This document shows, piece by piece, positions 8,698 through 46,332 of a stretch of 64,000 nucleotides of DNA (positions are counted from its first letter, which is position 1; each line of letters begins with the position of its first letter). The position numbers and the translations under genes are program-made. The stretch lies in contig CH464491.1 in NCBI GenBank assembly GCA_000002445.1, positions 2,240,001 through 2,304,000 of the forward strand, in the 5' to 3' direction. Source of the DNA: Trypanosoma brucei. Its lineage: Eukaryota. The notes under the pieces are model-generated. The model made no database searches and was not told the origin of the DNA. It worked only from the letters and a program-made list of their open reading frames with translations.

Positions 8698-11600
8698 ATG
8701 ACGAGTATCGAACAGATTGAAATCAGCGGAGTGCGCAGCTTCGACCCTAATCCAAATAACCGTCAGCGCATTGTCTTTAAGAAGCCACTCACTGTTATTC
8801 TCGGAAAGAATGGTGCTGGAAAGACAACTATTATTGAGGCACTTCTGAACGCCTGCACGGGTCAAATGCCTCCTGGTGGTGGAACAGAAAAGAGTTCGTT
8901 TGTGTACGACCCAAAGGTTGTGGGTGAGAATGATGTGAAGGCTCAGATCCGCCTTCTTTTCACGGGAAGGGGTGGGAAAGTTATGCAGGTTATTCGCTCG
9001 TTTCAGGCTACACGGACGCGGAATAAAACCACCTTCGCGACGCTCGATAACATTGTCGCCTTCCAAGATTCTGCGACGGGGAAAATCATATCCAGCACAT
9101 ATCGCGCCAATGACGTGGACCGCGCGATTCCAGACATGCTTGGTGTATCTCCTGCGGTATTGGAGCACGTCATATTCTGCCACCAGGAGGATGGAAATTG
9201 GCCCCTCTCCCCCCCGAAGGAAGTGAAGAAGATATTTGACGATATATTTGCAGCCACGCGTTATGTTCTTGCCCTCGACCGTTTGCGGGAGAATAATAAG
9301 GAACTGCGCCGCCAGCAGAAGGAACATGAGGCGAGCTTAATGTCATTGTCAGAGCACAGAGAGCAGGCACGCCAAATATCGGCGGATATTACAGTTAAGG
9401 AGGAGACTGTCGCAGGTATTAAAGCAAAAACGGATGCGCTGGCACCCCAATTGCAGGAACTGCAAGCCATCGCTACTGCTCTAGATAACGTGGAGCATCG
9501 TGCTGAAGGTTTATCTCGAGAAGCAGCTGTCATTGAAGGTCGAATAGGCGAAAAGAGGGAGTCTCTCAGCCGGTTAAACGTTTCCCCGCCCGGATACTCA
9601 CTGGGGGAGTTACTGCAACGCAGGCAGAACTTCGGTGAAAAGTTGAGGGAACTGGAATCCACTGTTTCGACAAAGAAGGAGCTTATGGAACGGGCGGTGG
9701 CGGAGCTTCGCCGTTGTGAAGAAAGTGTTGTGAGCCTCCGCTCCGGTATTGAGTTTCGTGAGAAACAGGAACAGCAGCACAAGAGGGAATGCGAGGAACT
9801 CAAGGTAATAATGAGTGATTTGTCTATGAAATTTGTCATCGATGGGGAGATCAATGAGCATTGTTTGACAAAGATAACGGAATATGTTAATGAGGAACTT
9901 CACAACGAAGAGCAAAAGCGAAGTGGAGAGCTAAATTCCATAGATGCAGGAATTCGTGCTGTAGAGGATAGAAGGTCCACAACACTTCGTGCGATGGACA
10001 CCGAAGGTAAGGAGAAGGAAATGAAAGAGGAGCAGCTCCGTCATCTGATGAAGAGATGTGGCGACGCAAAGGAGGCACTCGGTAAGTTGGCTCCGTACGT
10101 TACCCCTACACGTCTGAAGAATGTGCAGGACACGATTACCGAGTTGGAAAAACGTGTTGAGGCAATGGAGCTGCTGCAAAAGGGTGACGCGAGGTACAGG
10201 CAGCGACAGGACATCTTACAGAGTGTTGAGGCACAAAATAAGGTTGTCGCTCAGTTGCGACAAGAACTGTCCCGACACAAGCAGCGCTCAGGTCGTGAGG
10301 CAGAGATGAATCTCCTTCGTACCCAGATTGCGGAAAAGGAGGAAATTATCAACAACCGACTGCAGGAAGAGCTAATTGCAGGACTCAATGACCTTGGCTG
10401 CAATACAGGCGGATCGCAGACCCTCACAACTGTAACGATGCAAATCGACAAACTGAGGCGCAAGATGGCAGACACGCTTTATAGCGTCGAAGCAGAGGCC
10501 AATGACCTTGATCGCCAGTTGATTGCACTGAAACAGAACCGGTCGCAGTTGGAGGGGAAAATTGTCAGCGAGAATATAGAGCTACAGAGGAAGAGGGTTC
10601 AATGTATCAGCAAACTTGGAAATGATGATGCCCTAACTAACTTTGAGGCGCTTCTAGTGGAGGCGCGTGACAGATATCACAAATTGAATGAGAAGCTTAG
10701 TGGATCTAAAGCATTGGCCGCATGTCACGCCCACTTTGTGGAGCAGGCTAAGGTTGAGGACAAGTGCCCACTCTGTGGTCGTGCTTTTGGCAGTGAGAAT
10801 GAGTTGAATGACTTCTTGGCATCCTTTAAGGTGGGTCAACAAACCTCTGGGAAGGATAGCATAAAAGAGGGTGACGTTGAGAAGGCTCTGCAACGCGTGC
10901 GCGGACTCGAGCAGTTGGAGTCTGATGTAATGGACGTGAGGCGGCTTGCCGATAATGCACCACAACTGGAGGAGTCACTTAAATCTACGATTAAGCAGAT
11001 TCGAGACAAAGAAATTCTCCTGGAGGATGTGCACAACAAACGAGACAAAGTGAAGGACGAAATGCAGCGTGCGCAAAAACTGGTTCAGGCTGCGATGGAG
11101 GTGAATGCCATGACATCTGAGAAGCAGGCACTACTGCAGCAGCTTAACAGACGAGAGGCAGCATGTGCAGAGGCGAGCACATCTTCCGCTAACATTGGGG
11201 GTGCAGGGGAGCCTTGCTGTGCGGGTGAATTAGCGTCACTTTCGTACGAGGAGCTGTCGGACAAGTACGAGTCCGCAAATGCTGAACTTCACCGGTTGAA
11301 TGTGCTTCTAAGTGAAATGCAGAGAGGGGAAGAGGGAGGCTCTGCCCAAGCACTTGTCAAGGAGCTTACAATGAAGCGGTCGGAACTCTGTGAATTGAAA
11401 ATGAAGCTTACTCGTCAAGCCGAGGTTGAGGCAACGATTGCTCAATATGCGGAGCAGGAGGAAGGTTACGTCAGCCGTATTGCTGAAATAGACGACCAAC
11501 GGGAAAAACTGGTGGCCCAACTTGAATCTTACAATAAGGAGTTGGAAGCACTGCATGCAAAGCGGAAGGAGCTTGAGTTGGCGTCTCAACAGGGATACAT

Positions 11601-12747
11601 TGGTCAGCTAAAAAGAACACTAGGACTTCTTTCGGCTGTGCTACCGAGGCTGCGGGATTACATCACTTCAAGGGTTGGCGAAGAGCTCTCAAGAGACAGA
11701 GAGAGCTTGTGTGTGAATGAAAAACGACGAGACACGCAAGCTGAAGAGGTCAAGCTTCTCCGCTTATCAATTGACGACACATTGCGTATAATCAATGAAG
11801 AGCAGCGGCTCAGAGTGGAAGTGGACAAGTACATTGAGTATCTCGAGAAAAAGGGTTCCATAGAGGAAGATGAAAAACGTTTGAGTGATGTTAGGTGCAC
11901 CCTTTCTGAGTTGAAAGTAAATGCTGTGCCCGCTGCAGAAGCCGTCCTCGGAAAGGATGTTGTGGAGAGGGAAAGTGTTGGCCGAATTCGTGAGCTTATT
12001 CGCGGGAAAATCAGTGCGTTGGAGTGCCTTCGTGCTCAGCAAGATGGTGTCGCCGAGGCGATGCGACAGGACATTGAGAGTCTCAAAGGTCAGCTTACTC
12101 GCGATAAGTACAAAGATATTGAAAAGCGCTACCGCACGACCTTCCTGAAGGTCCAGACTACTGAAATTGCGGTTTCGGATGTGGAAAAATATTATCGAGC
12201 GCTGGAAAAGGCAGTGCAGACCTACCACCAAGAGAAGATTGCGCAGATCAATCAAATCTTGGCTGACCTTTGGCGACACACCTACAAGGGAAGCGATATT
12301 GACACCATTGAACTCCGTTCCGAGGATGATGTCACGTCAACTACAGCGAGGCGGAGTTACAGCTATCGTGTGGTGATGAAACGGGGGAACAGTGAAATGG
12401 ACATGCGGGGCCGTTGCAGTGCGGGTCAAAAGGTACTTGCCTCTGTTCTCATCCGACTTGCGCTAAGTGAAGCCTTTTGTTGTGACTGCGGAATTCTTGC
12501 ATTAGATGAGCCGACAACGAATCTTGACGAAGATAACGCGCGTTCTCTTGCGGAGTCGCTACGCATGCTTATTGACAGTCATCGAGCAGTGAAACATTTT
12601 CAGCTTATTGTCATTACTCACGATGAGCACTTCGTCCGCGCGCTAGGAGGCCAGGCACTGGATACTTTTTATTACATTCATAAGGATAGAGAGGGCGCCT
12701 TTTCTGTGATTGAGGAGCGCACTTTCGATCAGTTGTTCGCGAGTTGA
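8698..12747 (+). CDS. RAD50: RAD50 DNA double-strand-break repair ATPase (SMC-like), 1349 aa
   Basis: The start is ATG at 8698. N-terminal Walker A is 'LGKNGAGKTTIIEAL'. A very long coiled coil carries a central zinc hook 'CPLCGRAF' (nt ~10765-10788). C-terminal signature is 'CSAGQKVLASVLIRLAL', Walker B is 'ILALDEPTTNLD', and the D-loop/H-loop is 'IVITHDEHF'. Confidence 0.93.
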   Translation: MTSIEQIEISGVRSFDPNPNNRQRIVFKKPLTVILGKNGAGKTTIIEALLNACTGQMPPGGGTEKSSFVYDPKVVGENDVKAQIRLLFTGRGGKVMQVIRSFQATRTRNKTTFATLDNIVAFQDSATGKIISSTYRANDVDRAIPDMLGVSPAVLEHVIFCHQEDGNWPLSPPKEVKKIFDDIFAATRYVLALDRLRENNKELRRQQKEHEASLMSLSEHREQARQISADITVKEETVAGIKAKTDALAPQLQELQAIATALDNVEHRAEGLSREAAVIEGRIGEKRESLSRLNVSPPGYSLGELLQRRQNFGEKLRELESTVSTKKELMERAVAELRRCEESVVSLRSGIEFREKQEQQHKRECEELKVIMSDLSMKFVIDGEINEHCLTKITEYVNEELHNEEQKRSGELNSIDAGIRAVEDRRSTTLRAMDTEGKEKEMKEEQLRHLMKRCGDAKEALGKLAPYVTPTRLKNVQDTITELEKRVEAMELLQKGDARYRQRQDILQSVEAQNKVVAQLRQELSRHKQRSGREAEMNLLRTQIAEKEEIINNRLQEELIAGLNDLGCNTGGSQTLTTVTMQIDKLRRKMADTLYSVEAEANDLDRQLIALKQNRSQLEGKIVSENIELQRKRVQCISKLGNDDALTNFEALLVEARDRYHKLNEKLSGSKALAACHAHFVEQAKVEDKCPLCGRAFGSENELNDFLASFKVGQQTSGKDSIKEGDVEKALQRVRGLEQLESDVMDVRRLADNAPQLEESLKSTIKQIRDKEILLEDVHNKRDKVKDEMQRAQKLVQAAMEVNAMTSEKQALLQQLNRREAACAEASTSSANIGGAGEPCCAGELASLSYEELSDKYESANAELHRLNVLLSEMQRGEEGGSAQALVKELTMKRSELCELKMKLTRQAEVEATIAQYAEQEEGYVSRIAEIDDQREKLVAQLESYNKELEALHAKRKELELASQQGYIGQLKRTLGLLSAVLPRLRDYITSRVGEELSRDRESLCVNEKRRDTQAEEVKLLRLSIDDTLRIINEEQRLRVEVDKYIEYLEKKGSIEEDEKRLSDVRCTLSELKVNAVPAAEAVLGKDVVERESVGRIRELIRGKISALECLRAQQDGVAEAMRQDIESLKGQLTRDKYKDIEKRYRTTFLKVQTTEIAVSDVEKYYRALEKAVQTYHQEKIAQINQILADLWRHTYKGSDIDTIELRSEDDVTSTTARRSYSYRVVMKRGNSEMDMRGRCSAGQKVLASVLIRLALSEAFCCDCGILALDEPTTNLDEDNARSLAESLRMLIDSHRAVKHFQLIVITHDEHFVRALGGQALDTFYYIHKDREGAFSVIEERTFDQLFAS

Positions 12748-14057: not shown

Positions 14058-14987
14058 ATGAGGTCAACTGAGGTCGGGCGTGTTGTGGAGGATTTTATTG
14101 TACTCCCTCCGACACCCAAGTCCAAGTGGAAGTTGTCTGATTTCGAGCTTTTGCACAAACTTGGCGGCGGCAATTACGGGGATGTACACCTCGCCTCCGT
14201 GAAGGATTGCAATTTTGTTTGCGCGCTGAAAAGGTTGTCCATTAAAAAACTTGCGGATTTTGACATTGCGACGCAACTCCGTCGTGAAATTGAGATCGCT
14301 TTTAACACGCGTCACAAGTACCTGCTGCGAACCTATGCATACTTCTTTGACGAAACTGATATTTATCTCATTATGGAGCCATGCAGCAACGGCATGCTTT
14401 ACACGGAACTCAACCGAGTGAAATGCTTTGCGCCACCGACAGCAGCCCGTTACGTGGCTCAGCTCGCTGAAGCCCTCCTCTACTTGCATCAACATCACAT
14501 CCTCCACCGCGACATTAAGCCGGAGAATATTTTACTAGATCACAACAATAACATCAAACTGGCGGATTTCGGTTGGTCAGTCCACGATCCGGATAACCGT
14601 CGCAAGACATCTTGCGGGACGCCAGAGTATTTTCCACCAGAAATTGTGGGACGACAAGCGTACGATACGAGTGCTGACCTTTGGTGCCTGGGCATCTTCT
14701 GTTATGAGCTTCTCGTTGGTAAAACACCGTTTGTTGGAAAGGATACAGACCAAATCTGCAAGAACATTCATTCCATGCACTTCAAAATACCGGAGAATAT
14801 ACCGTCAGAAGCGAAGGACCTCATCGCGAACTTGCTTCTGCGTGATGGGTCACGGAGGCTTGCACTTCACCGTGTCGTGAATCACCAGTTCCTTCTCAAG
14901 TATTATTATCTCCCAAACAATTTACAACCTCCCACTGGAAAGCGTCCGCGTCTCGATGCAGAGCCAACTGCAGGGAAAGAGAATTAA
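14058..14987 (+). CDS. AUK1: Aurora-family serine/threonine protein kinase, 309 aa
   Basis: The start is ATG at 14058. Kinase motifs are the Gly loop 'LGGGNYGDV', Lys 'CALKRL', catalytic loop 'HRDIKPENILLD', the Aurora-diagnostic 'ADFGWSVH' DFG motif, 'GTPEYFPPE', and subdomain IX 'DLWCLGIFCYELLVG'. The symbol is inferred from memory of the T. brucei RAD50-AUK1 neighbourhood. Confidence 0.85.
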   Translation: MRSTEVGRVVEDFIVLPPTPKSKWKLSDFELLHKLGGGNYGDVHLASVKDCNFVCALKRLSIKKLADFDIATQLRREIEIAFNTRHKYLLRTYAYFFDETDIYLIMEPCSNGMLYTELNRVKCFAPPTAARYVAQLAEALLYLHQHHILHRDIKPENILLDHNNNIKLADFGWSVHDPDNRRKTSCGTPEYFPPEIVGRQAYDTSADLWCLGIFCYELLVGKTPFVGKDTDQICKNIHSMHFKIPENIPSEAKDLIANLLLRDGSRRLALHRVVNHQFLLKYYYLPNNLQPPTGKRPRLDAEPTAGKEN

Positions 14988-16202: not shown

Positions 16203-17396
16203 ATGGAGTTCTCTGGATCTACATTATCCGTTGTGGAGGTCGAGCACACCGTTAGGCAACTGCGCCCATTTCCCCTTCAAGATATCGGAACGGCAGAGTG
16301 GAAGAATCAGCGGGAAGCCGTGGAGCGACTCAACATGTGCACTCATAGTAACGCCGTTCTGAAAAAAGACGATACAGTTAAGGCATTTCTCATAGAACAT
16401 GAAAAGCTTCCTGTGTTACTGCACGAGTTGTTGGTTATGGAAGTGTGGCGGCAGCGTGTGCTTCCATTGATAAAGGACCAAATAGTCCAGCATCCAGCTG
16501 GCATTTACATGTACGTGCAGTACGAGATGGTGTTGCTAAACCTCTTCGAGTGCATCGCATTTCACGAGGAAGTTGTGGTGGCTCTTGACGAGGATGTATT
16601 GGAGTTAATTGACTACTGTTGGCGACAGGCTTCGAGACTTTTCGCAGAGCAGAATGTCAACGAAGTGCAGAGCAAACCAACAGCCCGGGATGTTAGCAAC
16701 GCTGCGAATACGGTGGAGGAGGTCCTCAAAAGTGCGGACCGGCAGATGCTTCATGCCATTTATCAGCGTGCAATGGCTTCCCTTTCTATCCTGTGGTTTA
16801 TCATCGATCGGTTGAACCAACTTCCTCTCGCGGCGTCCAACTCGGTTCTCGTGAAGAACGATCTCATTCTTGGACTTACGGAGGTGATGTTGCTTCAGCC
16901 GTGGTTACGGCGCTCCTCAGAGGCAACACAGAAGTTTTTCAACGGTGAGTTCAAAGACATTCCGCGGGCTGATGTATTGCTTGTTTGTACGCCTGAGGCC
17001 CACACATGGTTTTCGCTCCATAAACTACTTTGTGACCCGGAGTGCCGGCGGCGGTACTCGTATACACAAAGCAAGAAGGAACTCATCCTGCGCATTCGAC
17101 ATTTTCTTAATGACACCCTCGTTGATCAAATACCAGCTCTTGCGAGCTTGCAGAGGGCGCTTGAGGAGCTTTCGTTTCTCCAACCGCCCAGCGGAACAGA
17201 AGAAAAGTTTAAAAGCACTCTTACGATTGAGCAGGTCCCACGTATCATGACGTTGGTGGAGGTGGAGAGAAAAGGGAGTTGGGACGATCTCGCGTCCACG
17301 TTACGTGCCATGCTGCAGGACCCGAGTGTTCGCAACGAGGACGCGATGAGGTTATCGAGAATATTTGACGAAATGTTTTCCGATCAGTTGAAGTAA
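16203..17396 (+). CDS. ZMYND10 (BLU)-like protein, a putative axonemal dynein assembly factor homologue, 397 aa and lacking the C-terminal MYND finger
   Basis: The start is ATG at 16203. N-terminus 'VEHTVRQLRPFPLQDIGTAEWKNQREAVERLN' aligns by eye with human ZMYND10 '[28 protein letters not shown]'. The ORF ends before any C-x2-C...H-x3-C MYND motif. Confidence 0.65.
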   Translation: MEFSGSTLSVVEVEHTVRQLRPFPLQDIGTAEWKNQREAVERLNMCTHSNAVLKKDDTVKAFLIEHEKLPVLLHELLVMEVWRQRVLPLIKDQIVQHPAGIYMYVQYEMVLLNLFECIAFHEEVVVALDEDVLELIDYCWRQASRLFAEQNVNEVQSKPTARDVSNAANTVEEVLKSADRQMLHAIYQRAMASLSILWFIIDRLNQLPLAASNSVLVKNDLILGLTEVMLLQPWLRRSSEATQKFFNGEFKDIPRADVLLVCTPEAHTWFSLHKLLCDPECRRRYSYTQSKKELILRIRHFLNDTLVDQIPALASLQRALEELSFLQPPSGTEEKFKSTLTIEQVPRIMTLVEVERKGSWDDLASTLRAMLQDPSVRNEDAMRLSRIFDEMFSDQLK

Positions 17397-17565
17397 CGAA
17401 CATCTGATATATCCACATGCGATGAAACCATCCGGGTCTGCGTGTCAAAATGGCTGAGGTAAGAAATTACAGACCTAGAAAGGAGGTACAGAGTTATAAT
17501 ATATACATATTGGGTGGATACTGAAGGATAGTGCGGCCCGTTTGTTTTACCCCATATTTTTTCAG

Positions 17566-17592
17566 CACACACACACACACACTCTCTCTCCC
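17566..17592. repeat. (CA)8(CT)5 compound microsatellite
   Basis: cacacacacacacactctctctc seen directly. Confidence 0.8.
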
Positions 17593-18113
17593 TCTTTCAT
17601 TTCTTACCTTTTCATTTTACTTAATTCTTATGGCAACGGCCACTGCTGCCTTTCCGTTGTGTGGAAAAAGTATGTCAGCATCTTTGATCTCCTGAAAGGG
17701 GAGTAGCAAGGGAGGAGTTGAATAATTGTAGACGATAGTTCACGGCACGGGTAAACGTACCGTAATAAGGACGCGCAACAAACTGTGTGTAGTTGTGTGT
17801 GTCTATCTTATAGTTTCGTGCGTGTGACGTTTTTTTTTTTAGATTCCAGTTCTTATAGAATAATAGAGCGGGGGGTTGGGCGAGGGGGTGTGCAAAAAGT
17901 TATATATATATATATATACCAGATCCTGCAGGCAGGTTCTTCGCACTGCAGCTCTGAAGTGAGAAAGCTAAGGCGGTTGGCGTAGGGGGAACTGATATAA
18001 GATATACAGTGAAAGTTGTTCTTTGAGAAAGTAAGAGGTGGACGGAGGTGAGGCGCTAGGACTAATAGTGGCGCCTGATATATTGTGCGACATTCGGTGT
18101 ATGTTAGAAGGGC

Positions 18114-20315
18114 ATGTCTGATGTTCCGGAGCTTCCGTCATTTGAGGCGGCGGACGTTGACGACCGTCCGCCACCTCCATCGATCAGTGACTACCCCATA
18201 GGCTGTGAGGTGGGTCTCGTGGATATCAACATTGCCAAGGTGGCACAGACGGAGGAGTTGTGGGAGCCTTTCATGGACCACTTCTTTACTCAAGGAAGAC
18301 GGACGGTGCGGGTGGTGAGACACCAGGGCGATTATACCTTTGTGGTAAGCGAGGAAGATTCCATGATTGTGGGTTGCACATTGTACCGTGCCTGTCTTTG
18401 TGAACCTAAGGTGCGCATCGGTAAGTACGGTGGCACCAATGCCATAGTTTTAGGGTGTGACAGCACACACTCCATTGAGAGACGCACTTCCGGTTTGTCT
18501 GTCGTGACGGATCGTGAAGGTGATGCGGTGTGGGGCCCTGACTCGCCATTTCCTGATGGCGCAGCTGCCGATGGGGCCCCGGTGCCTGAATTTACGCCCC
18601 CAAGAGAGTCTGAGATTCCTTCGGACTGCCTCGAACGTGGGGGCCCATGTGTGCAGGAGCAACCAACGAAAGGGCAGGCCACACTGGAGGAGCGACGGTA
18701 CAATTCTGCGTTAATGAAGGCCTACGATGCTAGGATGAGGAAGGATTATAGTGAAGCCGTGCGGTACTGCACCAAGGCGTTGAGGCATTGTCCCAGTGGC
18801 TGTGTGAGAGCATTAGCTAACCGTTCAGCTATGTACCTGAGCATGCGTGACCCGAAAGCGGCCCTTGCGGATGCTCTTAAGGTGATTGAGCTGATGCCCA
18901 GCAACTATGTAGGCTACGTTCGCGCGGGTAATGCCATGCGTGGATTGAAGCGGAATGGAGAGGCACGGAACTTTTACCAGGAGGCACTAAAGTTGGACCC
19001 AAACAACGAAACAATTAAGTATCTAGAAAAAGATAACGCGGTGCTGATGGTGTACGCCTCGAGGCGGCGCAGAGGGCAGCATGCCTACGTTAGTGTGGAT
19101 CGATCGACCCTTAATATCATTCTCGTATCGGGGAAGGATCAGTGTGCAGGTGACGTAGCCTGGGAAGAAATAACGTCTATTGTAGCTCCACTCGGTGAGA
19201 CTGCGGATCTTTGCGATGCATCAGCGTGTATTTGCCCCCCACACGTGTGTGGAAACTGTTACCGACCACTTACCAAAGTCGAGGATTTCTTCAACTCTCT
19301 TGTAGGTGTGGAGCTTAGTCTCTTGAATGAGCTGTACAGCGGATGCAATGCTGTAAGTTGTACTTACAGCTGTGGCACCGTGTTCTGCTCAGAGAATTGT
19401 CGTACGAAGGGTTGGGCTTCTCACCACTGGATAGAATGCCCTGTTATCGGCAAGTGGCGTGAAGCATTTAAGAATATACCTGCTGTTTACAGATCGTTCT
19501 ACGCTGATTGTGCGTCCCACATAAATATGGTGACACCTGCAAAGGAGCAGGCAAACGGCTCGACAGATGGCCGTGATGGTTCCAGCAATTATGACGGCCC
19601 GTTTGCTTCACTTGCCTTATCTGTGGAGGGTAACCTAACTCAGGCACTGATTGCGTGCTGTCGACTTGCTTGCCGTATGTTTGTGGATGCCGTTAGTCGT
19701 GGACAGGCACTGAAGGATGTGGTCCTGCCATACAATTGGTTGTTGCCAGAAGATTGTAGCTACGTTCGTGTGACTGACGAAGGGGCAGCCAATAACGTGT
19801 TCACCCTAATCGCTAACAAGATGCTTAGACCCGTTTACGTATCACTTGAGCGGTGCTTTGATAACGAAGAGGGGGAATATCTTTCATTTGAGCTCTTCCT
19901 TCGCTTTTTTGAGCGAGCCCGCTTCAACAGCATCAAGTTACGCACATCATTGTGGCCCACCGTGCAGAAGGAAGCAAGGTGCTACAAGGAGCGACCCGCA
20001 GGTTTCGGTACCACAGAAATCGTAGGAGGACGAAATGTAGGTGTCTCTCTGGACCGGCAGTTGGAACACATTCAGTCGGCCCAAGCGACCTCTGTTGCGG
20101 GTTATTACGAGTACCTTGCGCTTTTTACCGCCTTTCCGGCGGCTTTCTCTCCACAACCGACCCGAAGTAAGCGAAACTTGGAGTCGTCGCGTCACAACTT
20201 GAATTTGAGGTTGGATATCGAGTCCTCTGCGATGATTCGAGCGGATGCAATTGAATATATTGCCGAAGGCGAGCAAATGGCTGTGGATCGATTGACTACA
20301 ACATATTTTGTGTAG
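18114..20315 (+). CDS. TPR-repeat plus MYND-type zinc-finger protein, 733 aa
   Basis: The start is ATG at 18114. Three consecutive TPR-like units span aa ~215-320 (EAVRYCTKALRHCP...ALANRSAMYLSMRDPKAALADALKVIELMP...YVRAGNAMRGLKRNGEARNFYQEALKLDPNN). The second half of a MYND finger 'FCSENCRTKGWASHHWIEC' (C-x3-C-x7-H-x4-C) is preceded by CGNC...C-x4-C-x3-C. Confidence 0.6.
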   Translation: MSDVPELPSFEAADVDDRPPPPSISDYPIGCEVGLVDINIAKVAQTEELWEPFMDHFFTQGRRTVRVVRHQGDYTFVVSEEDSMIVGCTLYRACLCEPKVRIGKYGGTNAIVLGCDSTHSIERRTSGLSVVTDREGDAVWGPDSPFPDGAAADGAPVPEFTPPRESEIPSDCLERGGPCVQEQPTKGQATLEERRYNSALMKAYDARMRKDYSEAVRYCTKALRHCPSGCVRALANRSAMYLSMRDPKAALADALKVIELMPSNYVGYVRAGNAMRGLKRNGEARNFYQEALKLDPNNETIKYLEKDNAVLMVYASRRRRGQHAYVSVDRSTLNIILVSGKDQCAGDVAWEEITSIVAPLGETADLCDASACICPPHVCGNCYRPLTKVEDFFNSLVGVELSLLNELYSGCNAVSCTYSCGTVFCSENCRTKGWASHHWIECPVIGKWREAFKNIPAVYRSFYADCASHINMVTPAKEQANGSTDGRDGSSNYDGPFASLALSVEGNLTQALIACCRLACRMFVDAVSRGQALKDVVLPYNWLLPEDCSYVRVTDEGAANNVFTLIANKMLRPVYVSLERCFDNEEGEYLSFELFLRFFERARFNSIKLRTSLWPTVQKEARCYKERPAGFGTTEIVGGRNVGVSLDRQLEHIQSAQATSVAGYYEYLALFTAFPAAFSPQPTRSKRNLESSRHNLNLRLDIESSAMIRADAIEYIAEGEQMAVDRLTTTYFV

Positions 20316-22819: not shown

Positions 22820-24088
22820 ATGAACACCATTTTCCGCCTTTTTCTGTTATTCGTGCAACTTTATGGCATCTCAGATCCCGCTACTGGGTCTAGCAGCTAC
22901 ACCACGGCAGGAATGGGGCGGGCGGAGGTACCAGAGCCCGAGTGGAGTTACTCCAACCTTGCGGCATGGCCACCGCTATGCCACACAGGGATGCACCAAA
23001 GCCCCATCTCCTTCAAGAATCTTACGCCGTCAGAGCTGCGGTGCACCAAGCCTCCGCAGCCATTGGAATTTTCTGAAGGATGTACCTTCAAGGCCGAAAG
23101 CACTTCCCTAAAAATCGACAACGGCGTTAACACGATCCGTGTTACGTTCCTTCCACTTGGTAAAACGGCTGGTGATCGAACCAACGTTTGTACTCTCCGC
23201 GATCCGTCCGGTGCTACTGGTGCCCAGAAGTATCAGCTTACTGCCATGCACTTTCACGCGCCACCAGAACATCTTTTCCCCCACGCGGCGCCCGATGCGG
23301 AGCTACACATTGTCTTCAAAGCAGAGGATGAACACAGTGTGGAACCCGCTGTTGTCGTCGCAGTGCAACTCGCTGCATCCGACGCAGCAAACACATCTGC
23401 GACGCGGGCACTTAACCACATTATGATCGACGGCCCGTTACCGCCGCGGCAGGCTTCCACCACATGCACCCTTGAAAGAAATTTGACTGTTGCCGAGATG
23501 TTGCCGCAGCGTCAGAGTTACGTAACATACAGTGGCTCCCTAACAACTCCACCATGCACGGAAGGGGTTCGCTTTGTAATAATGACAACCCCGCAGCTCA
23601 TATCGAAGGCGGCTTTCAACAAGTTGTCGCAGGTACTCCGCCAGACGTGGCCAGAGAATCGGCTGGGGAACCGGCGGCCGACTCAACCTCTGAACGGGCG
23701 GGAAGTTTGTCGGTACGTGGATGGCAGGCATCCGAAGACAAGCAATGGGCAAGGTGTATGGGGAGACTACCTTGACACCATTCCTGCCACTGGTGATTCA
23801 GTGAGTGAAGGTGGTAATCCATCTGGAAGTGAGGAGGGGGTAAAAGGCAACCTGAGTGGAGCTGATGTTGGTGCAAATCAAACGGAAGAAGAGAAAGATG
23901 GAAAGCAGCTGTGGCCTTACGTGCTTAAACCCCATGAAGCCATCCTTTTCACGGCTGCTGCAGTTATTCTCGTTGTTGCGGCACTCATTTTGTACTGGTG
24001 GTCAAACAATGCAAACGAAAAAGTTGATGCCAACGAGGCGGAATGGTTGGGCACCGCAGCTGAGGTGTACGGGACATCCTCCCTCTAA
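22820..24088 (+). CDS. alpha-carbonic anhydrase-like protein with an N-terminal signal peptide and a C-terminal transmembrane anchor, 422 aa
   Basis: The start is ATG at 22820. A signal-like N-terminus is present (MNTIFRLFLLFVQLYGISDP). Alpha-CA hallmarks are 'WSYSN...QSPISF', the zinc triad 'HFHAPPEH...AELHIVF' (His94, His96 and His119 equivalents), and 'SYVTYSGSLTTPPCTEGVRFVIM' (cf. CA2 '[22 protein letters not shown]'). A C-terminal TM helix is present (AILFTAAAVILVVAALILYWW). Confidence 0.8.
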   Translation: MNTIFRLFLLFVQLYGISDPATGSSSYTTAGMGRAEVPEPEWSYSNLAAWPPLCHTGMHQSPISFKNLTPSELRCTKPPQPLEFSEGCTFKAESTSLKIDNGVNTIRVTFLPLGKTAGDRTNVCTLRDPSGATGAQKYQLTAMHFHAPPEHLFPHAAPDAELHIVFKAEDEHSVEPAVVVAVQLAASDAANTSATRALNHIMIDGPLPPRQASTTCTLERNLTVAEMLPQRQSYVTYSGSLTTPPCTEGVRFVIMTTPQLISKAAFNKLSQVLRQTWPENRLGNRRPTQPLNGREVCRYVDGRHPKTSNGQGVWGDYLDTIPATGDSVSEGGNPSGSEEGVKGNLSGADVGANQTEEEKDGKQLWPYVLKPHEAILFTAAAVILVVAALILYWWSNNANEKVDANEAEWLGTAAEVYGTSSL

Positions 24089-39626: not shown

Positions 39627-40690
39627 GTAACGTTTCTCTTCACCACAAGCACTTATGTTGTCGTTTTTATTTGTGGTTGTACGTGTTTGTTAGAAGAAAT
39701 TATATCTGTGCGAGGGATTTAGTTATTGCTCGCAGCCGAGCGTTTGTACGTTTTGACGTGCGTCGCAGCGGTGCTCAGAGGTGGGGTCCCTCCTACACTT
39801 TCCTCTAAAAAGGAAAATTATCCACTGAAACTTTGACTTGTATATTAGCTGCGAATATCCACGTGGCTATTCTCGGAAGGAGGAGAGTGGGGGAGCAAAT
39901 GCACCGTATCATTTTCCGTCCCATTTTTTTTTTTCAATCTTCTTCACCTTCCCTTTTGTTTGTTGTGATGCTGCTGCAGGGATGTCTGTGTGACACTGAT
40001 GTGTTGTGCTTCTTCAAACAGACTTTAAGAAAATGAGCAAGCAGATAAATTTACATTCATTTATGCACCCGTGGTTACACTTGTACATTTATTTATTTCC
40101 AAAAAATATAAATACATGAATCGCATACAAGTGTGTTTGTATGCACCTGCAGGCTTTGGGAGGAAGAAGGGAGGAGGGGAAAGTTGGCAGCGACTGTTGC
40201 TGCTGTTGGCTCTGCCTTTCTATTTTTTCAAAGTTCCTTCGGTTTGGCGGTGGAACTCCGCCGTTCTCCATTGTTTTTCCCTTTACTTTCCAATTGTTTT
40301 CGAATCATAGTCCTCGTTTCTTTCTTCCCGCTCCTCCCACCTGTGACGTTTCTTTTTGAGAGCCGTGACAAGGCCGAATCTACCGGGAAAACTTCTTCTT
40401 TTCTTTGTTTCTTTCTTTTGCGACTTCAGCACCTGCGACACCCCCAAATATATATATATATATACACAATTGGAGTAAATTAAAACTATTTTTAACACCC
40501 TCAGGAAAAAAGAAGAAACGGGATCAGCAAACGGAGGATCAACTTTACGCTGTGTTTCTGAGATCGGAGGTCAGTTACAAGACCAAAAAAGTAAGAGGGG
40601 AAGGAAAAGTACATTTCGCACGCACACATCATCTTATATATTTATATTCATTTATATATAAAGCACTGAAGGATACTGTTGAGAACGTAT

Positions 40691-41995
40691 ATGCGTGTAG
40701 GAGGATATATGGGTACTTCCGAAGAGGATGGAAATACGGAGCTTTCCGTGAACGGCTCTTTGGATGGTGAAAAATCCATGGGCTTTCGCTGCCTAAAATG
40801 CGTCGGTGAAATTAGTACGTGGACGAAACTGACGAAACACCTGGACACGAGCTGGCACTACTCTGCTGCATGCGTTGAGTGCGGGAAGAAACACAGTTAC
40901 TTTGGTTCGTCACAGCCACACCGACACGAGATGAGCACCAAACATCGCGGATTCCTTGGCATATTCCATGAAAGAAACGACTACAAGATCGACCATCCGA
41001 TGGTACTTACGCGGGATCAGTATCGCTGCCATTGTGGCACATCATTCTTGTGTGTCCTGCATCTTGCCATTCATCTTCGCGACGAGCATCATAACCAATA
41101 CATCCCAAAGACGGTGAAATGTCTCACTTGCCAGGAGGAAGGCATGCTGGATGAGATGGCGGAACACTGGACGACAAAAAAAAGTGAAAACCGGAAAGGG
41201 CGGGGCTTACGATCGAAAAGGGGAACAGGTCCATGCGATGAAGGAGGGGTGCCGAAGGATTGTGAATTCGAAGTTGAAGGTTTCGGAGTGGATCAATTCC
41301 TCGTCCCATTCCCCAAGCGCCCACCTCGCAGCCCAAACGGGAGTCAATATGTCATTTTGTATCAGTGCCCGACTTGTCGACTTTTGTTTGATGAGTGGGC
41401 GGACATCCGGCAACATATTGAGGAATCAAACCACGTCCACGGACTTCCACCGGCACTTCTCCGTCGCCGAATAGAAAGAAGGGTTGGTTTAATAGAGCAG
41501 GGCTCGACCGGATATGGGCAGGTGGACTATCGGACAGCGGGAAATCGCTCGGCGGTTCGATACCTTAAAGAATTACTTGAAGTGTTTGCTGATATCAATA
41601 ACCCTGCCGTGAGGGAGCTTTTGTACAGATATGCCCCCACCAACAAAAATGTCGATCCGGATGATGAAGAAGTATTTGGTTACCAATGCCCCCTCGAGGA
41701 GTGCTCACAAGCCTTTCTAACCTATGGCGAGTTTCGAAGTCACATGAAAAGTACAAAACACCAAACGGAATGTAATATCGACCCGGTAACGGGAAAGCCG
41801 TGGCTCCCTTCGTGGGAGTCAAATCCGTACGCCTTTGAGGTGACCTTCACCATGAGACAATTGGTTGAAGTGTTTGGCTACCGCAAATGCGGGGAGTGCA
41901 ACCGCCCTTACAGGCCAGGAGAGGAACATTATCACTACCAAATGCACCACTTCACCGAAAAAATTGATTTCCGAATCCTGGAATCCACTCTGTAA
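40691..41995 (+). CDS. multi-C2H2 (U1/matrin-like) zinc-finger protein, ~434 aa with about 7 fingers
   Basis: The track ORF starts at TTG 40679, and the first ATG is 40691 (second at 40709). Fingers include FRCLKCVGEISTWTKLTKHLDTSWH, CVECGKKHSYFGSSQPHRHEMSTKH, YRCHCGTSFLCVLHLAIHLRDEHH, VKCLTCQEE...EHW, YQCPTCRLLFDEWADIRQHIEESNHVH, YQCPLEECSQAFLTYGEFRSHMKSTKH and CGECNRPYRPGEEHYHYQMHH. Confidence 0.75.
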   Translation: MRVGGYMGTSEEDGNTELSVNGSLDGEKSMGFRCLKCVGEISTWTKLTKHLDTSWHYSAACVECGKKHSYFGSSQPHRHEMSTKHRGFLGIFHERNDYKIDHPMVLTRDQYRCHCGTSFLCVLHLAIHLRDEHHNQYIPKTVKCLTCQEEGMLDEMAEHWTTKKSENRKGRGLRSKRGTGPCDEGGVPKDCEFEVEGFGVDQFLVPFPKRPPRSPNGSQYVILYQCPTCRLLFDEWADIRQHIEESNHVHGLPPALLRRRIERRVGLIEQGSTGYGQVDYRTAGNRSAVRYLKELLEVFADINNPAVRELLYRYAPTNKNVDPDDEEVFGYQCPLEECSQAFLTYGEFRSHMKSTKHQTECNIDPVTGKPWLPSWESNPYAFEVTFTMRQLVEVFGYRKCGECNRPYRPGEEHYHYQMHHFTEKIDFRILESTL

Positions 41996-42370
41996 AGAAA
42001 CATTTCTTTATGCCACGAAGAGTTTAACATGTACTGGAAAGAGGAGAAGAACGAAGATGAACGAGACGTTGAAATTTACGAGGATTATCATAATCAATAA
42101 TATTTTGCGCCTTTCTTTTTAAGGAAGAAAAGAAAAAGAAGGCAGAGTCCGTCGCATTAAGTATCTGACGTGGATAGATTGTACGAGCACACATAAAGGA
42201 GATGAGACTACGCCGATTTAACTTTTTTTAATCTTCAACGACCCCGGGAAGGTAAGTGAAACAGATAGTTTTTCACCCCTTTTTTCTTTTTTTTTCTTCT
42301 TGTTGCTTTGTTTTGTCTAGAGAGGAATGATATAAAAGGAAGGATAGAGGGGAACAGGAGAGCGTGTATT

Positions 42371-42405
42371 TGTATGTGTGTGTATGTGTGTGTGTGTGTG
42401 TGTGT
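42371..42405. repeat. imperfect (TG)n microsatellite
   Basis: tgtatgtgtgtgtatgtgtgtgtgtgtgtgtgtg seen directly. Confidence 0.85.
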
Positions 42406-42967
42406 TAAATGTATGCGGAGAAGGAATGAGTAGCTGAAATGCGGAGATTATTCCGTGGGAATTTTTATCCGAAACGAAGATAAATGCAAAACACCCCGCC
42501 CTTACCTGCTCCCCTCTTTTGAATTTTTCCTCTCTTTTTTTTTTCCTTCTTTCTACAATATGTTACATTCCTTTTTTTTTTTCTTTTAGGCCCTGCGCTG
42601 CCAAACCCGTATTTCATTTTATGTATGTGTTGTGTGTTTCTCACTGTGACGTGGCCGGGAAGGACTAAAGTAACTGCGAGAAGGAACTAATAATAAAAGA
42701 GCCTAAAAAAGGCTTCGGAAATCGGACCTCGCCAGGCGCTGAGGCCGCGTTTTTCTTTCTTTTTTTTCCTTTTATATTTTTGTTTTTGGTTTTGTTCGGT
42801 CGGACTCGATGGCCAAAACTCAAGCGGACAATACGCCGAGGGCCGCGTCCTCCCTCTTCCATTCCCTTTGGCAGTCGGGCGTTCAAACCGTCACTTGACA
42901 CTGTTTCGACAATTAAACATAGCCTTCAGTTTCTTTTTCTAAGTTTGTAACCTCCTGTTGTAACTTC

Positions 42968-43050
42968 ATTTTCTTTTTTCTTTTTTCTTTTTTCTTTTTG
43001 TTCCCTTCCCTTCCCTTTTCTTCCCTTTTCTCTTCCTTTTCCTTTTCTTC
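42968..43050 (+). repeat. pyrimidine repeat block: (TTTTTTC)n followed by (TTCCC)n
   Basis: ttttcttttttcttttttcttttttctttttg is followed by ttcccttcccttcccttttcttcccttttctcttccttttccttttcttc. Confidence 0.6.
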
Positions 43051-44358
43051 TTACTTTTACACTTTTTTTTGTTTTATCCTTCTCGCCCCTTCCGCCACTT
43101 AACTGCGTTCACACCACTTGCTAAATAATTTTTTTTTCTTTTCTCCTTTCCTTTCCTTTCCTTTTTTTTTTTGAAAGTTGTTTGCTTAAATTTTTCCGTT
43201 CAGTAACTTGACAGGTTGTTTATATTCTTATATTTAACTATATATTCAAATGCAGAATGCACACGAATGTATAAATGCATAAATATATATAAATATATAT
43301 ATGTATTAATAATATTTATTTGGTTTCCACCCCTTTTCTTAAGGGTACAATGGAACTTTCTCTTATTCATTATTATTTATGCAGAAAGACAGCAATACAT
43401 GCCCGTGCATATATTTATATATTTAATTTGGTATGTTGGATTACTTTACCAACACAGAATTTGGATAAATATCCTAACTGCCACATGAAGATGCGGAAAC
43501 CGAGTTGTTTCTCCTCTCATATATTCCAATCTTACTGTTTATTGTCTCTGTTTTAAATTGTTAACGGCTTCAGTCTTCTATCTTTTTCGTGTTTTTTTTT
43601 TCGTCTGTATCCTCTCGTGTGATGTCTCCTCTCGTTCTCTTCATCGATAAAGATTTAAAAAGGAAAAAAAATAATATGATATTATATATTTATATTTATA
43701 ATGTTGTTGTTATGATTGCTATGATTGTCTGTCGTTTGTGGTTCCCTTTCCATGTGTCCGGGTCCCGTTCTTATTGCCACGTGGCGCGATTTGCTTTTTT
43801 GTTTTGTTTTGTTTTCTTCCCTCACTTCTTAATTATATTTTTCTTTCACCCTTTTCTTTGTCAAATCGTTGATGTATTAATGACGTCTTTTTGTCGTTGT
43901 GTTGTCCTTCCTTTTTTTTTTGTTTTTTTTTTCAATGTATCATCCCTTTTTTTGTCTCGCTTTGTTTCCCCTTCTCCCCCCCCGTATTTCACTTCCTCAT
44001 TGCTTGCGTTACCGTTTCGCGTCCTTCCATCGGGGAAGCGTTCGTATGAATTATCAGTGATCAGCAAGAACTGTGAGCAAAAAAAAAAAAAAGAATTCTA
44101 CGGCCCTTCCATCAAGTGAAAAGAAAAGAAAAATGTAATATGTATTTATACTTATATATGCGCCGGGGAGCGAAAGCAAATGTGGGAGTTTTTTTTTTCA
44201 TTTTGTCTTTGCGTTTTTTTTTGTGTGTGTGCTTTGGTTAGGAGGAGGGAGTCTGGGGAAACAATGTTTGTGGTTCATTCAATTACAGAGGAAAGGGTAG
44301 ATTACCGAGCGTAACCTGAAGTAACTGAACCAAAAGTCGTTTGAGTCATCCGATTAGA

Positions 44359-44667: not shown

Positions 44668-46332
44668 ATGAGCACATCTAATGACGTGCTGGTGAATAGC
44701 AAGAACTCGGTCAGTGTAGCGCGTCGATACGCTCTATACTCCAACTATGAGTTGGCCCTCGCTATTTACAACAGCCTTGACAAGGACTTTGACGCATATC
44801 TTGATTCGTGCAAAGATAAGCAGGAACATAAAAAATGGAAGCAAGTTAAGGAAAGGATAGCTGAGGAGGGGGCACTTGTACGCGCAATTCAGGACGAGTT
44901 ACGAGCATTCGTGAACCCAAGCGAGGCGGCACGAATCGATCGGCAACAATGGAGGAAACAGCAGGAGGAGTTCAAACCGATTTGTGGCGGGGAAGAAAAT
45001 GGACAGAGTGACCGGGGTGCAGGCAAGGCGGCCCGTCTGACGACTCTTCACATCACAAAATCCGTCCCACCGAATTTAAGTAGGTTAGCTTCCCAATCGT
45101 TGTTCGAAAGCAACCCCTCTACTCGTAATCAACTGCTGTATGGCGATAAGGATCGATTTGGCCCACCAGAGGGACCCGTAATCCGAAAAAGCAAAGCGGT
45201 AAATCCACAACCGGCTCAAAGGTTTGCATCACCCGTAGTCCGGCGTCGCCCGGTCATCACATCGAGCAACACAGCAAGTCTTACCAATGGCTCTCAAACG
45301 GTTCCACCCAAGGCAAAGATAGCTCCACGACGTGTTGAACGTCCGAAGGAAAATGCCACGCGGGGACAAATGCCACGTTCTTCAGTTCCACGATTTGTAC
45401 CGCGTAGTGGGGAGGAAGAGCTTGTGGCACTCATAGAAGCTGACATGCATGTAGGATCGCTTAGTGTTGGTTGGGAGGATGTTGCTGGTTTGCAGGACGC
45501 CAAGGGACTGCTGGAGGAAGCCGTGGTGTACCCCGTGCTGATGCCGGAGTATTATCAAGGCATTCGACGGCCTTGGAAGGGTGTTCTGTTGTATGGTCCA
45601 CCGGGTACGGGCAAGACGATGCTTGCGAAGGCAGTAGCGGCGGAATGTAACACAACGTTCTTCAATATTTCACCCGCCACACTGACGAGTAAATGGCGCG
45701 GGGACAGCGAGAAACTTATCCGCGTGCTCTTCGAAATGGCGCGGCACTACGCGCCTAGCACAATCTTTGTGGACGAAATTGACGCCGTGTGTAGCCAACG
45801 TGGCGAGAGCAGTGAGCATGAGGCTTCACGGCGTGCAAAGGGGACACTCTTGGCACAAATGGATGGGTTAAGCGTGGATCCTGGAAAAACTGTTATGGTA
45901 CTCGGGGCCACGAACCATCCGTGGTCGATCGATGAAGCGATGCGCCGGCGCCTGGAGAAGCGTATTTATATACCCCTTCCCGACTATAAGGATCGTCTGG
46001 AGCTGTTCCGTATCAACACGAAGACTTTAAAACTGTCCCCGGATGTTGACTTTGATAAGTTGTCCAAGATGCTTGAAGGGCGCTACTACAGCTGTGCGGA
46101 TCTAACGAATTTAGTTCGTGATGCAGCCATGATGACGATGCGGCGTTTCATGGAGGAGATGGACAAGACAGAAGTGAAAAGGCGTGCGGCGGAGATTGGG
46201 AAGTTGGTTGCTGAACAACCCATCACAATGGATGATTTCTTAAATGCTGTCAGAAATGTTCCCAGTAGTATTAACGTAGAGCAAATTAAAAAATTTGAGA
46301 AGTGGAAGAAGGAGTTCGAGGTAAATGTTTAG
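44668..46332 (+). CDS. KAT60: katanin p60 catalytic subunit (meiotic-clade AAA ATPase), 554 aa
   Basis: The start is ATG at 44668. The N-terminus is MIT-like and helical. The AAA core 'LLYGPPGTGKTMLAKAVAAECNTTFFNISPATLTSKWRGDSEKLIRVLFEMARHY' is near-identical in pattern to katanin p60 ('...[35 protein letters not shown]'). Walker B is 'IFVDEIDAV', and 'LGATNHPWSIDEAMRRRLEKRIYIPLP' follows. Confidence 0.88.
   Translation: MSTSNDVLVNSKNSVSVARRYALYSNYELALAIYNSLDKDFDAYLDSCKDKQEHKKWKQVKERIAEEGALVRAIQDELRAFVNPSEAARIDRQQWRKQQEEFKPICGGEENGQSDRGAGKAARLTTLHITKSVPPNLSRLASQSLFESNPSTRNQLLYGDKDRFGPPEGPVIRKSKAVNPQPAQRFASPVVRRRPVITSSNTASLTNGSQTVPPKAKIAPRRVERPKENATRGQMPRSSVPRFVPRSGEEELVALIEADMHVGSLSVGWEDVAGLQDAKGLLEEAVVYPVLMPEYYQGIRRPWKGVLLYGPPGTGKTMLAKAVAAECNTTFFNISPATLTSKWRGDSEKLIRVLFEMARHYAPSTIFVDEIDAVCSQRGESSEHEASRRAKGTLLAQMDGLSVDPGKTVMVLGATNHPWSIDEAMRRRLEKRIYIPLPDYKDRLELFRINTKTLKLSPDVDFDKLSKMLEGRYYSCADLTNLVRDAAMMTMRRFMEEMDKTEVKRRAAEIGKLVAEQPITMDDFLNAVRNVPSSINVEQIKKFEKWKKEFEVNV

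Follow-up and report, generated by a model that had tools for sequence, protein, structure and literature searches.

Two neighbouring genes on chromosome 11 of Trypanosoma brucei raise the question of whether a ZMYND10-like protein that ends before any MYND zinc finger, and a downstream neighbour that carries such a finger, form a meaningful pair. We examined them within a 64 kilobase (kb) stretch of that chromosome (64,000 nucleotides, hereafter the window). A sequence-only reading had placed the two genes at 16203..17396 and 18114..20315, and the open reading frame (ORF) list of the window contains both at exactly these positions: ORF1 (16203..17396, + strand, 397 amino acids (aa)) and ORF2 (18114..20315, + strand, 733 aa). 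Our analysis makes it fairly probable that the two are unrelated neighbours in a conserved polycistronic block, with ORF1 a finger-less member of the ZMYND10/DNAAF7 family and ORF2 a divergent, likely non-catalytic SMYD-type protein.

ORF1 has no Pfam match, and hence no zf-MYND (PF01753), and no match among PDB sequences. A word-indexed search with ORF1 returned 65 homologues from kinetoplastids, 367-484 aa long and all lacking PF01753, together with one distant protein that carries PF01753 (P0066, 451 aa, expect value (E) 1e-32); the same type of search with the ORF1 family alignment (A1) added no relatives. Used as a profile in an exhaustive HMMER search, A1 recovered 1,979 representatives at E ≤ 1e-3, of which 440 remain when the threshold is tightened to E ≤ 1e-30 (over profile positions ~5-390), and reached named animal ZMYND10 at E ~1e-66. 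Finger-bearing matches of ~440 aa include proteins named ZMYND10 by their sources, from Macrostomum lignano, Gryllus bimaculatus and Sergentomyia. Homology extends over the whole protein (profile positions 1-394), so that the proposed likeness to ZMYND10 held while its restriction to the N-terminus did not. ORF1 contains the helical body of ~380-390 residues that lies N-terminal to the finger in ZMYND10/DNAAF7, and it shares this ~390-residue body with the human, mouse, Drosophila and Paramecium proteins; W82, E108, P233-W234, W269 and D308-Q309-x-P311 are nearly invariant in the ORF1 family. Judged by its sequence, ORF1 belongs to the ZMYND10/DNAAF7 family, and we file it as a MYND-less form and not as a canonical ZMYND10.

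The family finger is absent from ORF1 by Pfam, by alignment and in the downstream sequence. In A1 all kinetoplastid sequences end where the canonical finger of P0066, CACCGSKAEKRCSRCKKTWYCSKECQVKDFKAGHKAIC, starts, and the C-terminus of ORF1 coincides with the exact start of that MYND domain, as expected from the claim that ORF1 terminates before any MYND. The sequence-only reading had allowed for a finger in an unannotated downstream extension, and none was found: the 717-base spacer between the genes (17397..18113, + strand) holds no CxxC, no half-MYND motif and many stops in its three forward frames. The spacer sequence and its three-frame translation also ruled out that ORF1 gains a finger from a concealed exon further downstream or through a frameshift. 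The spacer consists of untranslated regions, pyrimidine tracts and CA/TC/TA microsatellites, with no zinc-finger coding potential. The (CA)n, (TC)n and (TA)n repeats lie at 17560-17600 and 17900-17920; such microsatellites are ordinary in trypanosome intergenic regions.

We then scored the presence of MYND across the family by a ligand regular expression and a local hidden Markov model, with Pfam spot checks. None of the 65 kinetoplastid homologues carried the ligand motif, or even its second half, compared with 59 of 145 other best representatives that carried it in full. The remaining representatives comprised 20 short finger-less forms, 43 forms with a 150-280 aa extension and 23 that were incompletely matched C-terminally, and some of the finger-less or extended ones may be fragments or mis-predicted gene models. 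Cluster look-ups assigned short finger-less forms to the prokinetoplastid Papus ankaliazontas (P0091), the diplonemid Flectonema neradi (P0090), the euglenids Ploeotia vitrea (P0094) and Petalomonas cantuscygni (P0096), and the heteroloboseans Pharyngomonas kirbyi (P0095, ORF marked complete) and Willaertia magna (P0112, genome-derived). A Pfam check recorded no finger in four of these six discoban forms and a clear one (E 5e-11) in the glaucophyte control P0097. Because the short form is common to kinetoplastids, a prokinetoplastid, a diplonemid, euglenids and heteroloboseans, finger-less ZMYND10 is at least as old as the ancestor shared by Euglenozoa and Heterolobosea, where the finger was lost once or had never been gained. 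The suggested lineage-specific domain loss, and with it the question of whether the MYND-less form is ancestral in kinetoplastids, is thereby answered in part: the absence is uniform across all 65 homologues, and it is not confined to kinetoplastids.

The C-terminus of the family is evolutionarily plastic, since 20 short and 43 long-tailed forms occur among the 145 representatives. The long-tailed forms make up a third layout of the ZMYND10 family, in which a C-terminal extension of 150-280 aa, lacking a MYND and any Pfam match, follows the body; this layout was seen in P0099, P0102, P0107, P0109, P0126 and ~38 others, one of which is labelled ZMYND10 by the Joint Genome Institute (JGI). Separately, two metagenomic loci (L071, 2106-3402; L032, 10001-11292) carry a three-exon ZMYND10-like gene of an intron-bearing eukaryote that also ends without a MYND and is flanked by hybrid histidine-kinase genes.

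ORF2 probably does carry a MYND-type finger, at aa 379-442 (19248..19439, + strand), as indicated by invariant ligands, Pfam, hhalign and a structural model. The ligands read C379-x2-C382-x33-C416-x3-C420-x4-C425-x3-C429-x8-H438-x3-C442, of which FCSENCRTKGWASHHWIEC forms part, and this is the sole MYND-like ligand pattern in the window. All eight, plus W434 and E441, are invariant in the ORF2 family alignment (A2), whose 17 sequences cover Trypanosoma and more distant trypanosomatid-like sequences. Ligand order is that of MYND (C4-C2HC) and the spacing is non-canonical, with C-x3-C and a family-specific insert of 33 residues in the first loop, between the first and second Cys pairs (aa 383-415, 19260..19358, + strand). 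The insert is present in all ORF2 orthologues, is longer in the homologue on metagenomic contig L003, and forms two short helices in the model, at model residues 72-78 and 84-90. Against a Pfam gathering cut-off of 22.7 bits, the intact T. brucei segment matched zf-MYND at 9.8 bits (E 1.1, second half of the profile alone) and, with the insert removed, at 17.3 bits (E 0.005, profile 4-39), both below the cut-off, while the orthologue P0077 with its insert removed passed it at 24.6 bits (E 2.7e-5, full profile, 1-39); we chose the deletion boundaries ourselves, so this recovery is supportive and not decisive. When ORF2 was aligned by hhalign to an approximate SMYD3 sequence, the MYND alone aligned (probability 54%, E 1.3e-4), which we treat as a lead and not as a test, and a search of PDB sequences with the ORF2 profile gave the MYND of ANKMY1 and SMYD3 as sub-threshold matches only. 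The MYND region of the C-terminal model has a predicted local distance difference test score (pLDDT) >90. The sequence-only reading of the neighbour as a protein with TPR repeats and a divergent MYND finger was thus supported, with TPR_2 at E 6e-14, eight invariant ligands, and a zf-MYND score above threshold only in P0077 once the insert is removed.

Modelling places this finger inside a SET fold. A model of ORF2 residues 318-733 built from a 15-sequence alignment (pLDDT 77.8, predicted template modelling score (pTM) 0.79) gave structural matches to SMYD1 (13.7, 224 residues aligned), SMYD3 (12.5), Toxoplasma PCR12/PCKMT (11.1), SMYD2 (9.0), PTAC14 (8.7), SETD6 (8.7) and AKMT (7.5). In SMYD proteins the MYND splits the SET domain into an S-sequence and a core, and SMYD4 differs from the other members in carrying a further TPR domain N-terminally (PMC4307310). 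The ORF2 model shows the same split and the same strand-MYND-helices-strands order: an S-sequence with the N-terminal strands of the split SET (aa 323-360, 19080..19193, + strand), the finger, and then a helical I-SET-like region and the core SET strands, in which the catalytic motifs are not kept (aa 443-733, 19440..20312, + strand). Because the order in the model is the SMYD layout and SMYD4 adds an N-terminal TPR, which Pfam places N-terminal to the SET/MYND lobe in ORF2 as well, ORF2 (18114..20315) is, as modelled, a divergent SMYD4-like TPR and split-SET/MYND protein.

The SET-like core appears to have lost the features of an active enzyme. No SET was detected in ORF2 by Pfam (E ≤ 10), by its profile against PDB sequences or by hhalign against the approximate SMYD3 sequence. 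A column read-out of the family alignment shows N605, S612, W614, G663, F671 and N695 conserved in the core and no invariant His or Tyr there. The SMYD cofactor and catalytic motifs (GxG, NHxC and the catalytic Tyr after GEEL) were not found; with the register set by eye, aa 672-673 ([TEK][AVL]) fall at the 'NH' of NHSCxPN and precede a variable low-confidence insert and then '[YP]N[VIL]', and aa 726 (R or N) falls at the catalytic Tyr that comes after 'GE[EQ]L'. The post-SET Cys cluster and TPR-like C-terminal lobe of SMYD1-4 are also missing, because the protein ends ~20 residues past the last SET strand. From these motifs ORF2 is probably not an enzyme. Compared with SMYD proteins, SMYD4 included, ORF2 therefore stands apart both in these absences (sequence-detectable SET, catalytic and cofactor motifs, post-SET cluster and C-terminal lobe) and in its additions, namely the 33-residue MYND insert, the C-x3-C spacing and a conserved N-terminal beta domain.

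This small beta-rich domain (aa 22-100, 18177..18413, + strand) has no Pfam match; in A2 it shows a dense invariant run (DRP, GC, AQT, WE, RH.G.Y.FV, TLYRACL), and it is modelled as strands and helices at pLDDT 60-80. Pfam matches on ORF2 are to TPR alone (TPR_1, TPR_2 and TPR_8, aa ~200-300), corresponding to three TPR motifs and a capping helix (aa 190-317, 18681..19064, + strand). The full-length ORF2 model from AlphaFold2 (AF2; pLDDT 70.8) gave structural matches to TPR proteins only, and by fold its TPR is nearest to those of Hsp70/Hsp90 co-chaperones, including FKBP8 and the dynein assembly factors SPAG1 and RPAP3. Co-chaperone TPRs that bind Hsp70/Hsp90, a type represented by HOP TPR1, SGT, PP5, RPAP3, SPAG1 and FKBP8, have a two-carboxylate clamp of five positions (K, N, N, K, R, on helices A1-A3), whereas alignment to HOP TPR1, with what we take to be its clamp numbering, gives L200, Y204, N236, V266 and R270 in T. 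brucei ORF2. Since two of the five positions remain, binding of EEVD peptides by this TPR is doubtful. The orthologue P0078 keeps a canonical 'K..GN..F' clamp helix in its first TPR helix in A2, in place of L200/Y204 in T. brucei, which suggests, as far as sequence can tell, that the ORF2 family descends from a true Hsp70/Hsp90-binding TPR that decayed later. ORF2 is Tb927.11.8240 (Tb11.01.0310), because the TrypTag C-terminal tagging primer for that gene matches window positions 20241-20312 with 0 mismatches. C-terminally tagged, the protein is recorded in TrypTag as cytoplasm[points,weak] and not in the flagellum, contrary to the suggestion that it is flagellum-related.

We next considered why the two genes lie side by side. 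Database entries 99% identical to ORF1 and ORF2 are P0001 and P0067 (the latter from T. b. equiperdum), and the T. congolense orthologues are also adjacent (TCIL3000_11_8770 and _8780). On L. major chromosome 28 the order is RAD50-like gene, kinase, ZMYND10-like gene and ORF2 orthologue (31% identity, E 3e-89, ligands kept), and contig L003 carries a RAD50-like gene, a ZMYND10-like gene (49% identical to ORF1) and then an ORF2 homologue (E 2e-33). Wherever the pair is kept, the upstream RAD50-like gene is kept too. On a more distant kinetoplastid-like contig (L002), a ZMYND10-like gene with 42% identity has unrelated genes downstream and no ORF2-like neighbour; none of 80 further metagenomic ZMYND10-like loci showed one either, although these are mostly short contigs from unrelated eukaryotes, most of them too short to tell, and provide weak negative evidence on adjacency. 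Block synteny is general among trypanosomatid genomes, and their polycistrons are not ordered by gene function. Because the RAD50-like gene is conserved along with the pair, the adjacency looks like ordinary block synteny of RAD50-like gene, AUK1, ZMYND10-like gene and ORF2 within one polycistron. The finger was likely absent from ZMYND10 before ORF2 became its neighbour, because the finger-less form is found beyond the lineages in which an ORF2 neighbour could be traced. The claim that the pairing exceeds chance therefore gives way to a conserved block that includes the RAD50-like gene, and the pairing of two MYND names is a coincidence.

It had also been proposed that the neighbour supplies the missing module. 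Such a partnership in trans, in which ORF2 would contribute its MYND and a co-chaperone-like TPR to a complex that links dynein clients to Hsp70/Hsp90 and replaces the mammalian ZMYND10-MYND/FKBP8 link, would account for an adjacency kept from T. brucei to Leishmania and in L003, and would agree with the co-chaperone fold of the TPR, the cytoplasmic location of ORF2, where dynein assembly factors act, and the known work of SMYD proteins with Hsp90 (PMC4307310). We nevertheless regard it as very unlikely, and found no evidence in its support: the RAD50-like gene travels with the pair as in generic synteny; MYND-less ZMYND10 occurs in diplonemids, euglenids and heteroloboseans, and on L002 beside no ORF2-like gene; the carboxylate clamp of ORF2 is mostly lost; and the classical MYND ligand PxLxP is absent from ORF1 and present in 3 of its 65 homologues. 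The absence of functional ordering in trypanosomatid polycistrons counts against it as well. We see an even slimmer chance for the specific form in which a catalytically dead, SMYD-derived co-chaperone adaptor, ORF2, cooperates with finger-less ZMYND10 in folding axonemal dynein heavy chains. If it were true, ORF2 would parallel, in trypanosomatids, the SMYD1-Hsp90-UNC45 system for myosin, the pair would count among the rare neighbours in a trypanosomatid polycistron that are linked by function, and the MYND and TPR functions of animal ZMYND10-FKBP8 would be supplied in trans. An ancient split or rearrangement, by which a full-length ZMYND10 broke and its MYND passed to the downstream gene, has only the adjacency, the same-strand order and the common domain name in its favour, and we give it practically no credence. 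It is strongly disfavoured because the ORF2 finger has an internal SMYD position, 378 residues into the protein and between the S-sequence and the rest of SET as in SMYD1-3, and not at the N-terminus; short ZMYND10 also extends well beyond the lineages with ORF2 as neighbour, and the spacer holds no coding remnants.

Each protein, taken on its own, also admits a different account. ORF2 could be a functioning lysine methyltransferase of the SMYD type whose motifs have diverged unusually far, comparable to the apicomplexan AKMT and PCKMT, cytoskeleton-associated SET methyltransferases of Toxoplasma that are both among its structural matches. The SET fold is retained at high model confidence, some core positions are kept (N605, S612, W614, F671 and N695), and TgPCKMT, a TPR-ankyrin-SET protein that needs its catalytic His for function, is among the best matches. 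This reading is hard to reconcile with the failure of Pfam to match SET even at E ≤ 10, with the missing invariant His and Tyr and the substituted NH and Tyr sites (by eye), and with the loss of the post-SET cluster and C-terminal lobe, and we consider it quite unlikely. PCKMT itself (PCR12, TGME49_292170) has ankyrin repeats, requires the His and localises to the preconoidal rings, whereas ORF2 carries a MYND, has no such His and is placed in the cytoplasm by TrypTag. For ORF1, the finger-less ZMYND10 may instead represent the primitive state, with the MYND fused later in the ancestor of other eukaryotic groups and never lost in Discoba. In keeping with this, the finger is absent from every sampled euglenozoan and both sampled Heterolobosea, the 20 short and 43 long-tailed representatives among the 145 are also finger-less, and medaka deletion mutants are capable of functional rescue, as cited by Mali et al. 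(PMC6044906). MYND-bearing forms in very distant groups (animals, a glaucophyte and Rhodelphis) fit an early origin with repeated losses, however, and from this unrooted comparison we hold the primitive state to be rather unlikely.

We therefore return to unrelated neighbours in a conserved block, a finger-less ZMYND10/DNAAF7 protein beside a divergent SMYD-type protein. Several points weigh against this interpretation. Mammalian ZMYND10 is reported to require its C-terminal part, MYND included, in order to stabilise DNAI1 and to bind FKBP8, and ORF1 has no MYND: the truncation p.Gln366*, which removes this part, fails to stabilise DNAI1 (PMC5895051), and either W423A, inside the finger, or T379C, a little ahead of it, abolishes FKBP8 binding (PMC6044906). 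Because these contacts require the region with the MYND, ORF1 would, by analogy, have to work somewhat differently or through another partner. The SET assignment of ORF2 comes from predicted structure only, and the probable loss of catalysis uses a motif register set by eye and not by structural superposition. Beyond trypanosomatids the distribution of ORF2 is poorly sampled, because TPR proteins dominated the word-indexed search, in which even the L003 homologue did not appear. Literature searches that combined ZMYND10 with either Trypanosoma or Leishmania, or that used the gene identifiers, returned no organism-specific study and no experimental data on ORF1, which is probably Tb927.11.8230, as judged from the identifiers of its neighbours.

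Homologies, domain boundaries, fold, taxonomic range and synteny come directly out of the analysis; the cellular roles of both proteins, like the loss of catalysis, we infer from these comparisons. In mammals ZMYND10 acts in the cytoplasm as a co-chaperone of both heavy and intermediate dynein chains, and LRRC6 binds a C-terminal fragment of it (PMC6940843). In the discoban proteins the body is retained together with a conserved C-terminal helix (EDAMRLSRIFDEMF in ORF1), and the finger is missing. ORF1 may thus act as a cytoplasmic helical scaffold or co-chaperone for the folding and pre-assembly of dynein arms, working through its conserved body and C-terminal helix and without the MYND-dependent contacts of mammals. 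An FKBP8-type contact would then be absent in discoban ZMYND10 or be made through the segment preceding the finger. ORF2 would most likely serve as an adaptor in the cytoplasm that mediates protein-protein interactions and has no catalytic activity.

All real genes of the window lie on a single strand, as is typical of a trypanosomatid polycistron. The + strand holds 21 of its 23 ORFs of at least 200 aa, including every long one, and this bias is as expected for one polycistronic unit. Upstream of ORF1 lie the Aurora kinase AUK1 (Tb927.11.8220, 14058..14987) and the RAD50-like SMC ATPase (Tb927.11.8210, 8698-12747), which carries the TrypTag label 'telomere-like'. Downstream, 22820-24088 encodes a eukaryotic-type carbonic-anhydrase-like protein with a hydrophobic C-terminal segment. 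ORFs 40679-41995 and 44668-46332 are separated by a 2.6 kb gap, and the markedly AT-rich stretch that it contains (42001-44000, GC 0.36, AT skew -0.29) stands out in the window.

The observation itself is thus confirmed and its interpretation supported in part: the idea that the two MYND genes form a meaningful pair fails, and two modest points remain, the finger-less ZMYND10 found across Euglenozoa and Heterolobosea and the cryptic SMYD4-like protein Tb927.11.8240. The latter and its orthologues, annotated as 'TPR repeat' or hypothetical proteins, could on the strength of the model be re-described as divergent SMYD4-like and probably non-catalytic. Euglenozoa and Heterolobosea, a deep flagellated branch, build motile axonemes with a MYND-less ZMYND10/DNAAF7, which speaks against placing the finger, or the FKBP8 contact that mammalian work maps to it, in the universal core of dynein pre-assembly. 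It also suggests that the conserved working part of ZMYND10/DNAAF7 lies in the helical body and in the segment that directly precedes the finger; trypanosomes would be a convenient system for testing this.

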